The notes under the pieces are model-generated. The model was not told where the DNA came from. It saw nothing but the letters and a program-made list of their open reading frames with translations, and did not search any database. A program made the position numbers and the translations under genes. DNA of 64,000 bases from an archaeon. Its GTDB lineage: Archaea; Nanobdellota; Nanobdellia; Pacearchaeales; GW2011-AR1. The stretch lies in contig JAUWIJ010000006.1 of the NCBI GenBank assembly GCA_030605415.1, forward strand, positions 2,335 to 66,334. Direction: 5' to 3'. Shown piece by piece: positions 25,293 through 25,398 of the stretch; within the stretch, counting starts at the first letter, position 1, and the number at the start of each line of letters is the position of its first letter.

Positions 25293-25398
25293 TTTGAACA
25301 CACGACAGTCGGGGGCGAATAAAACGCTTTGAGGAAAAACAAATTCAAAATCAAATATTTTTCGAAATGTATTTTATGAGTAAAATCCCCTGGGGCCA
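25293..25398 (+). repeat. Cassette-A unit: partial tRNA-Lys 3' copy interrupted by a conserved 67-nt cassette
   Basis: Junction ttgaacacacgaca, then gtcggggg, then cgaataaaacgctttgagg...tattttatgagta, then aaatcccctggggcca. Homologous unit at 59851-59958. Confidence 0.8.

Follow-up and report, generated by a model that had tools for sequence, protein, structure and literature searches.

Hairpin-bearing units arrayed outward from tRNA gene ends in a genus of DPANN archaea, and their possible origin by tRNA-homing insertion

Many tRNA genes of the archaeal genome analyzed here are accompanied by small units of ~100 bp, which contain no ORF, enclose a conserved hairpin cassette within a partial copy of the adjacent tRNA gene and, in all assignable copies, face outward from that gene. 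The architecture of these units, their copy number, outward orientation, restriction to a single genus and polymorphism between orthologous loci were observed directly. Our preferred reading, held tentatively, is that they represent genus-specific small non-coding insertion units, which home to tRNA gene ends and accumulate there as arrays.

Results

Source genome and window

The window, i.e., the whole 64,000-nucleotide stretch of DNA that was analyzed, comprises bases 2335-66334 of contig C1 of an 888 kb genome assembled in 22 contigs (G000), which is ~89% complete and has a GC content of 35%. Archaeal markers found in it include one-piece Rpb1 and Rpb2 homologues, EF-2, the RNase L inhibitor (ABCE1) and an intein-bearing NrdD; the closest named homologues of the EF-2 belong to MAGs of 'Candidatus Pacearchaeota' and 'Nanoarchaeota', therefore the host is a DPANN archaeon. 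The NrdD protein (1389 aa, window 9952-14121, + strand) carries a LAGLIDADG homing-endonuclease/intein insertion (Pfam PF14528, PF14890). Across window positions 1-64000 the GC skew is strongly positive (+0.3 to +0.4) and nearly all long ORFs lie on the + strand, which is consistent with a single replichore and a strong gene-orientation bias. Short tandem or degenerate repeats, G-rich and of the CTACTAACTAC type, occur at 2729-2779, 17863-17913, 42314-42378, 44842-44957 and 52702-52750 (repeat search D2, D4, D20). Another repeat family of the genome, distinct from the cassette described below, consists of ~25 dispersed copies of a ~35-nt segment resembling the 3' end of tRNA-Arg(tcg); they are scattered over contigs C4, C6, C7, C9, C10, C11, C15, C16, C17, C19, C21 and C22, mostly not at tRNA genes. 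The tRNA-Arg(tcg) with a 682-nt 'intron' called by ARAGORN at C12:5371-6149 is almost certainly a false merge.

Anatomy of the units

The units are built in the same order, namely a junction motif (J), a piece of the interior of the local tRNA, an insert, and a copy of the tRNA terminus read outward, the last being about 12-28 bp long (Table 1). Along the strand of the cassette, this copy always comes on the side facing away from the tRNA. In the tRNA the interior piece directly adjoins the terminal segment, and the insert therefore sits within a tRNA copy. The J motif, which resembles TTGAACACACGAC / (T)TGAACMCACGAC, is conserved across units and genomes, and its 3' tail can often pair with the piece of stem that follows, resulting in a small palindrome: the tail CGAC faces GTCG in the first unit at tRNA-Lys, GTGACC faces GGTCAC at tRNA-Thr, and ACGAC faces GTCGT at tRNA-Thr(ggt) of the related genome G023. 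The earlier note on this DNA, made from its letters, had listed such a succession of four pieces behind tRNA-Lys and tRNA-Thr, and inspection of the raw sequence position by position, together with the search tools, placed all of them as claimed.

Table 1. Features of the tRNA-Lys, tRNA-Met, tRNA-Leu and tRNA-Thr loci (window positions)
Feature	Position	Strand	Basis
tRNA-Lys(UUU), intact, parent of 3'-side units	25217-25293	+	ARAGORN; Rfam RF00005 25218-25292
J junction motif of Lys unit 1, ttgaacacacgaca (TTGAACACACGACA)	25294-25307	+	J kept across units and genomes
Local tRNA-Lys piece gtcggggg (GTCGGGGG)	25308-25315	+	identical to tRNA 25265-25272
Hairpin cassette, 66 bp, Lys copy	25316-25381	+	covariance model R1 match 25315-25383; covariation
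tRNA-Lys 3'-terminal copy, aaaatcccctggggcca	25382 to ~25398-25399	+	sequence; fold
Lys unit 2: J-like motif, D15-family insert and tRNA-Lys 3'-end-like copy	25400-25501	+	repeat search D15
Partial tRNA-Met copy, nt 1-44 exact	58172-58350	+	blastn tRNA-Met 1-45 at C1:60507-60551
tRNA-Met(CAU), intact	58401-58478	+	ARAGORN
tRNA-Leu(taa) 5'-side unit 1	59256-59360	-	cassette core 59270-59336 in reverse
tRNA-Leu(taa) 5'-side unit 2	59398-59505	-	cassette core 59414-59479 in reverse
tRNA-Leu(UAA), intact	59539-59624	+	ARAGORN; Rfam
tRNA-Leu 3'-side units without R1 cassette	59625-59720	+	sequence; homologous C8 array
tRNA-Thr(CGU), intact	59778-59850	+	ARAGORN; Rfam
J motif of Thr unit, aaacacgtgacc (AAACACGTGACC)	59855-59866	+	sequence
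tRNA-Thr T-stem piece ggtcacgg (GGTCACGG)	59867-59874	+	identical to tRNA 59822-59829
Hairpin cassette, Thr copy	59875-59938	+	R1 match 59873-59938
tRNA-Thr terminal copy and 2 nt, tttgactcccgtcggaggcttag (TTTGACTCCCGTCGGAGGCTTAG)	59939-59961	+	exact 23 bp = 59831-59853

At the tRNA-Lys locus (window 25217-25501), the interior piece of unit 1 corresponds to the variable loop and the 5' strand of the T-stem, and the terminal copy to the end of the T-loop, the 3' strand of the T-stem and the acceptor 3' strand with the discriminator; it has one C fewer than the tRNA and measures 17-18 bp. The cassette between them is an imperfect inverted repeat with an AT-rich loop that contains a T-tract. In the minimum free energy fold of this unit GGGGG and CCCC pair around the cassette and close the T-stem, i.e., the tRNA pieces of 3'-side units can re-form the T-stem around the insert; no BHB is evident in this fold. 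The second unit ends in the terminal copy AATCCCCCTGAGTCAT (25486-25501). For the same region, a contig of a relative from the public cold-seep run X4 joins window position 25214 to 25581, the tRNA-Lys region and the downstream region being in inverted orientation, so that the locus is rearranged there.

The unit region on the 3' side of tRNA-Thr (59851-59961 as a whole) closes with an exact terminal copy, and terminal copies are likewise exact duplicates of the preceding terminus at the Ser(gga) array, at Pro and at Thr(tgt), those of Ser(gga) and Pro being ~16-20 bp long. Upstream of tRNA-Leu(taa) both cassette copies lie in reverse, as the earlier note had it, and so does J. Unit 2 contains an exact copy of tRNA-Leu nt 1-12, tgtggggatgcc, at 59398-59409, and the corresponding copy in unit 1 (59256-59265) is worn; the D-loop-like piece that the earlier note read as ccaaacgccc is present, and in unit 2 its CCAAACG agrees with the local tRNA. 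This piece has C in unit 2 of the window and T in the tRNA-Leu units of contigs C8 and C19, each time as in the unit's own tRNA. Chance similarity of the tRNA-matching flanks, an objection that had been raised in advance, is thus ruled out, as the flanks match the local tRNA exactly and follow its particular variant.

The position of the insert within the tRNA copy varies. In 3'-side units it is the T-stem/T-loop junction; in 5'-side units it follows nt 12, in the D-arm, at tRNA-Leu, and nt 28, in the anticodon arm, at tRNA-Glu and tRNA-Cys, where the copies reach ~nt 58-67. The units on the 3' side of tRNA-Leu(UAA) enclose other inserts, each closed by a copy of the tRNA-Leu 3' end (…CCCCACA), and the pseudo-copy of tRNA-Met has two inserts, in the anticodon region and in the T-loop, the latter belonging to the D15 family.

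Copy number and outward orientation

A covariance model of the cassette (R1), which the earlier note had proposed to build, was applied with a threshold E-value below 1e-6, and blastn agreed on the loci. It retrieved ~24 copies in G000, located in arrays at tRNA genes. All 20 assignable copies point outward: those at 3' ends lie on the same strand as the tRNA and those at 5' ends on the opposite one. Flanks served to assign two copies lying between tRNAs, and the assignment to Cys rests on them. Thirteen copies occur at the 3' ends, on the tRNA's own strand (Lys, Thr(cgt), Thr(tgt) twice, Ser(gct), Ser(cga), Ser(gga), Gly(gcc), Pro(tgg), Ile(gat) twice, Leu(tag) and a weak one at Arg(tcg)), and seven at the 5' ends, on the opposite strand (Leu(taa) twice, Leu(tag) twice, Leu(caa), Glu(ttc) and Cys(gca)). 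The remaining copies are found near tRNA-like sequences without an ARAGORN call or at contig ends. In the related genomes 9 of 9 assignable copies are in the 3'-sense arrangement (Thr, Arg, Ser, Trp, Pro, Val, Leu). Beside the cassette units there is in every case an intact tRNA of their own identity, and none of the cassettes lies in a working tRNA.

At its 3' end a tRNA gene reads, on its own strand, T-arm, acceptor 3' strand and discriminator. At the 5' end, read outward on the opposite strand, the complement of the acceptor 5' strand is equal to the acceptor 3' strand (e.g., CCCCACA for tRNA-Leu(taa)). The tRNA terminus thus reads alike at both ends of the gene when read outward, and a process recognizing this terminus would act at both of them in mirrored fashion, which agrees with the orientations found. 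Tandem pairs of units occur at Leu(taa), Leu(tag) and Thr(tgt), a row of three at Ser(gga) and one of at least three in the Lys-like array of C22; arrays reach three or more units (C12 Ser, C22, C9, C8), and some tandem neighbours are near-identical (Leu units of C8, C22). Since each unit ends in a new copy of the terminus, units can accumulate in tandem.

The occurrence of the cassette in both orientations had earlier been taken to argue for mobility at the level of DNA rather than for a conventional intron. That a DNA-level process is more likely than such an intron is supported by the absence of the cassette from working tRNAs and by its antisense position relative to the tRNA pieces of the 5'-side units; the orientation, however, is not random but always outward, and a mobile element is our interpretation of it.

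The cassette hairpin

The consensus fold of 17 cassette cores (alignment A1) consists of a stem of 17 pairs and a loop that is AT-rich and variable. The cassette ends GAACAATTCGC...GTGAATAG pair with each other and constitute terminal inverted repeats of 17 bp, and the loop contains the conserved T-tract ATATTTTT on the forward strand of the cassette, which is the outward one. Changes on both sides were registered in 13 of the 17 stem pairs; the number of double-change cells, 46, compares with a mean of 13 after shuffling and was matched by none of 500 shuffles, and controls with slid partners gave only 1-4 double-change pairs. The compensatory pair pointed out previously (aTaaaa/ttttAt in the Lys cassette versus aCaaaa/ttttGt in the Thr one) is real and belongs to this covarying helix. 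Such a pattern lends strong support to the view that the structure of the cassette is maintained by selection, either as DNA inverted repeats or as RNA.

Homology of the Lys and Thr cassettes, also stated in the earlier note, is confirmed by covariance-model matches with E-values of ~1e-17 to 1e-19. The cassette matched no covariance model in the Rfam search, in which only the tRNAs were recognized, and our literature searches found no described element with this architecture, in line with the first impression that it was an unfamiliar one. An exact 22-mer of the cassette had no match among the IMG/VR viral contigs; a 17-mer gave two matches in viral contigs, neither of which fits the covariance model, so they were regarded as chance matches and a viral source is left without support.

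Distribution, turnover and assembly support

The cassette was detected with R1 in 21 of 24 genomes of the genus, the copies numbering 1-12 per genome and often lying at contig ends, whereas 16 genomes from other families of this order gave no match. At the orthologous tRNA-Lys(UUU) locus, genome G024 has identical J, stem piece and terminal copy and an internally diverged cassette; G005 has tRNA-Lys with no unit; and in G018 the corresponding position in the T-loop is occupied by a different insert. Within the genus, units have therefore been acquired, lost or exchanged.

In the source metagenome, X1 (cold seep), one Logan contig spans the 3' end of tRNA-Lys and the whole unit, which supports the assembly. 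None of the X1 Logan contigs spans a full array, and they break at unit boundaries; neither an excised circle nor a mixture of empty and filled sites was seen at read level in this sample. At the end of one contig the unit end is followed by J again, which fits either an excised circle or a second unit present in some members of the population. In the metatranscriptome runs only the tRNA part was present (X15, 4% of words). The tendency of contigs of G000 and its relatives to end at the copies, like the breaks in the Logan contigs, is what collapsed or chimeric repeats would produce, and the possibility of an artefact had been raised earlier. Yet each of the ~24 distinct loci contains the sequence of its own tRNA, the X1 contig covers the tRNA-Lys 3' end with the entire unit, and the same unit is found at the orthologous locus of G024; an assembly artefact was therefore rejected as scarcely credible. 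As a practical hazard, the arrays break assemblies and collapse in short-read data, and their tRNA-like fragments fool tRNA annotators.

Other inserts and candidate enzymes

The cassette is one of several insert families. The D15 family is represented in the second Lys unit and in the tRNA-Met pseudo-copy, the family designated 'insert X' in the Ser(gga) array and on contigs C6 and C14, and the insert of the G018 type also on C4. Common to these families are the logic of insertion and, directly before the terminal copy, a motif at the 3' end (…GTGA(A/G)TAG). At C17:45416-47662 an intron-bearing tRNA-Ile(UAU) is followed by a truncated cassette unit and then by a 2.1-kb insert, which encodes a hypothetical 300-aa ORF and no integrase and closes with an exact copy of the tRNA-Ile 3' end. 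It is bounded by these two, so larger cargo can ride likewise.

Several enzymes of possible relevance are encoded in G000. Tyrosine recombinases comprise two XerA-like proteins of the archaeal type (C7, C19) and a PHROG-1 phage-type integrase on C17, where a eukaryotic-type topoisomerase IB is also present (~39.8-40.9 kb and 63935-64960 for the pair). A diversity-generating retroelement (DGR) with a reverse transcriptase (RT) and Avd (NF033474) is located on C9 at ~43122-44126, and a second, group-II-intron-like RT at C11:1149-2309. None of these recombinases, topoisomerase and RTs adjoins any array, and none is implicated. Neither Y1 TnpA nor TnpB (no match to PF01797 and PF07282) was found in the genome, nor was Cas1.

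Discussion

Origin of the units

Duplication of the tRNA terminus, tandem growth, the mirrored outward rule and the polymorphism of orthologous loci, taken together, point to a DNA-level process which, as we infer, homes to the ends of tRNA genes and regenerates its target at each insertion. Such a process would see the same target at both ends of the tRNA gene, the complement of the acceptor 5' strand resembling the tRNA 3' end. Each insertion would recreate the target distally, leading to a tandem pile-up, as in repeated att-site integration, with the tRNA left intact. A stem piece that is templated locally and a J tail that is often complementary to it suggest a step of copying and insertion with the local tRNA gene as template: every insertion would copy the local tRNA, e.g., through template switching around the hairpin in the course of insertion or repair, instead of transposing a fixed element. 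The hairpin, as the conserved module whose structure is kept, would be the likeliest recognition element, most likely the very part seen by the mobilizing machinery. Integron integrases, for comparison, recognize folded attC hairpins. Against the interpretation as homing units stands the fact that no enzyme is linked to the arrays. The variable length of the copied terminus and the variable position of the insert (T-loop, D-arm, anticodon arm) suit a fixed-core recombinase poorly, and no known transposon or integrase accounts for a stem piece that is templated locally.

A more doubtful possibility is that the units are tRNA-end-homing mini-elements of a class so far undescribed in DPANN, in which the hairpin would be copied in with the host tRNA as template and mobilized in trans. 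Elements of this kind would copy the terminus, rebuild a T-arm-like stem around the insert, recognize the end of the acceptor stem and build outward arrays; the enzyme acting in trans might be a tyrosine recombinase, encoded by a virus or by the host, or else an RT.

A scheme in which a tyrosine recombinase of the host or of a parasite (e.g., one of the two XerA paralogs) integrates small units, circular or single-stranded, at a core in the tRNA end seems unlikely to us. The enzyme would recognize the hairpin as IntI does folded attC, with the core being duplicated and the arrays growing. Such a scheme would account for the core duplication and tandem arrays actually found and agrees with the conserved imperfect-palindrome hairpin of attC-like size, with the presence of two XerA-like recombinases and the PHROG-1 integrase in the genome, and with the X1 contig end, where the passage from unit end to J fits a circle or a second unit. 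The copies, however, lack an integron-type R-box core (GTTRRRY), the copied terminus varies in length and the insert takes several positions within the tRNA copies, the internal tRNA pieces are local rather than brought from a donor, and no recombinase is encoded near the arrays. A scenario without any mobile element, to which we ascribe about the same low probability, assumes that replication-transcription conflict at highly transcribed tRNA genes causes fork stalling and template switching with locally templated partial duplications, the hairpin being spread by hairpin-primed switching of this kind or through gene conversion among the arrays. A locally templated stem piece and a quasi-palindrome of J and stem are what template switching typically produces, partial tRNA copies free of the cassette do exist (window 59625-59720), and tandem neighbours are at times near-identical (Leu units of C8, C22). 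A 66-bp hairpin in ~24 copies and in 21 genomes, with the same J and a strict outward rule, would nevertheless be hard to produce without a template, and the cassette itself would have to act as a selfish template.

Two further explanations appear quite improbable. The RTs encoded in the genome (the group-II-like one of C11 or that of the C9 DGR) could copy cassette RNA and switch to local pre-tRNA, the resulting cDNA entering the tRNA ends; template switching between RNAs would indeed yield local flanks, and two RTs are available. But in the 5'-side units the cassette is antisense to the tRNA pieces, which is hard to obtain from a sense pre-tRNA template, no RT lies near the arrays, and DGR RTs work on their own variable repeats. 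The other explanation, to which we give marginally less credence, regards the unit as a regulatory element under selection, acting as RNA or as DNA, for instance as an insulator or a terminator, with host-beneficial arrays copied by duplication. The T-tract would then stop read-through from the tRNA in the 3'-side units, or opposite-strand transcription into the tRNA in the 5'-side ones. Both the conservation of this tract on the outward strand, as in a terminator, and the retention of J and the tRNA pieces between G000 and G024, with a diverged loop, fit this suggestion, whereas the presence or absence of units among congeners speaks against a strict requirement for them.

Comparison with known systems

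tRNA genes are the commonest landing sites of prokaryotic mobile DNA, and to our knowledge the mobile elements of DPANN archaea are poorly known. Among the literature that we reached, the closest described case is the tRNA-Thr fragment model of Caldiarchaeum (PMC3293823). Like the scars of tRNA-targeting integrative elements (of SSV and pNOB8 type, and in Caldiarchaeum; PMC3293823), the units consist of partial tRNA copies beside intact tRNAs, a duplicated terminus saves the functional tRNA, and tRNA genes are favoured targets. They differ from such scars in their size of ~100 bp, the lack of an integrase or element body, the tandem arrays, the internal hairpin, the mirrored occurrence at both tRNA ends and the locally templated pieces. 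The duplicated tRNA-terminal core of an att scar is thus present, and an integrase and a body between attL and attR are absent. The earlier note had itself envisaged that a conventional integrase-bearing element might explain the sites as att scars; this is opposed by the absence of any ORF from the units, apart from the hypothetical one in the 2.1-kb insert at tRNA-Ile(tat), which has no integrase, and by the location of the recombinases elsewhere in the genome.

Integron attC cassettes resemble the units in having an imperfect-palindrome hairpin of similar size with compensatory changes, arrayed at a fixed type of site. The units, unlike them, have no ORFs, lie at tRNA ends rather than at one attI and are flanked by host tRNA sequence; the compensated palindrome was found, and the R''/R' boxes (RYYYAAC ... 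GTTRRRY) and an IntI beside attI were not. MITEs and REP/BIME elements, mobilized by IS200/IS605-type or RAYT enzymes, are also small non-coding multicopy hairpins formed by inverted repeats and have target preferences, but the units duplicate 12-28 bp of the tRNA terminus instead of a short target site duplication or a tetranucleotide and contain locally templated pieces. Terminal inverted repeats are shared with MITEs, and a partner TnpA Y1/TnpB is missing.

Archaeal tRNA introns (with BHB motifs and cleaved by EndA), which are known in the D-arm and at non-canonical positions as well (Asgard preprint 10.64898/2026.10.13.758758), are similarly inserted inside tRNA sequence, often in the D-arm or non-canonically. 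The cassettes, by contrast, occur only in partial copies beside an intact tRNA and are antisense in the 5'-side units, which rules out intron splicing as their origin, and a conventional tRNA intron was rejected. Split or permuted tRNA genes were rejected too, as the corresponding intact tRNA lies next to the copies each time. With CRISPR arrays the units share the tandem arrangement and the duplication of a flanking 'repeat' (here the tRNA terminus) by each new insert; they differ in having one conserved insert family instead of diverse spacers and a 'repeat' that is tRNA-specific, and the genome has no Cas1, hence no Cas1/Cas2 module, so that a CRISPR array was rejected. As far as our literature searches reached, the units are tRNA-targeted insertion units outside any of the described families compared.

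Biological meaning

If the interpretation as homing insertion units is true, the known tRNA-targeting mobile DNA of DPANN archaea would gain a non-autonomous element defined by its structure. A tiny genus-specific system would insert at both ends of many tRNA genes, the copying of the terminus sparing the tRNA. To specialists in archaeal mobile DNA and tRNA the outward mirror rule, the local templating and the conserved hairpin should be surprising. The mirror rule points to the logic of recognition, in which the end of the acceptor stem would be read on either strand, and local templating of the tRNA pieces suggests a step of copying and insertion that differs from both standard transposition and site-specific recombination. 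If, instead, the arrays are a host-beneficial selected structure, such as a terminator or insulator, they would represent a new way to organize tRNA loci.
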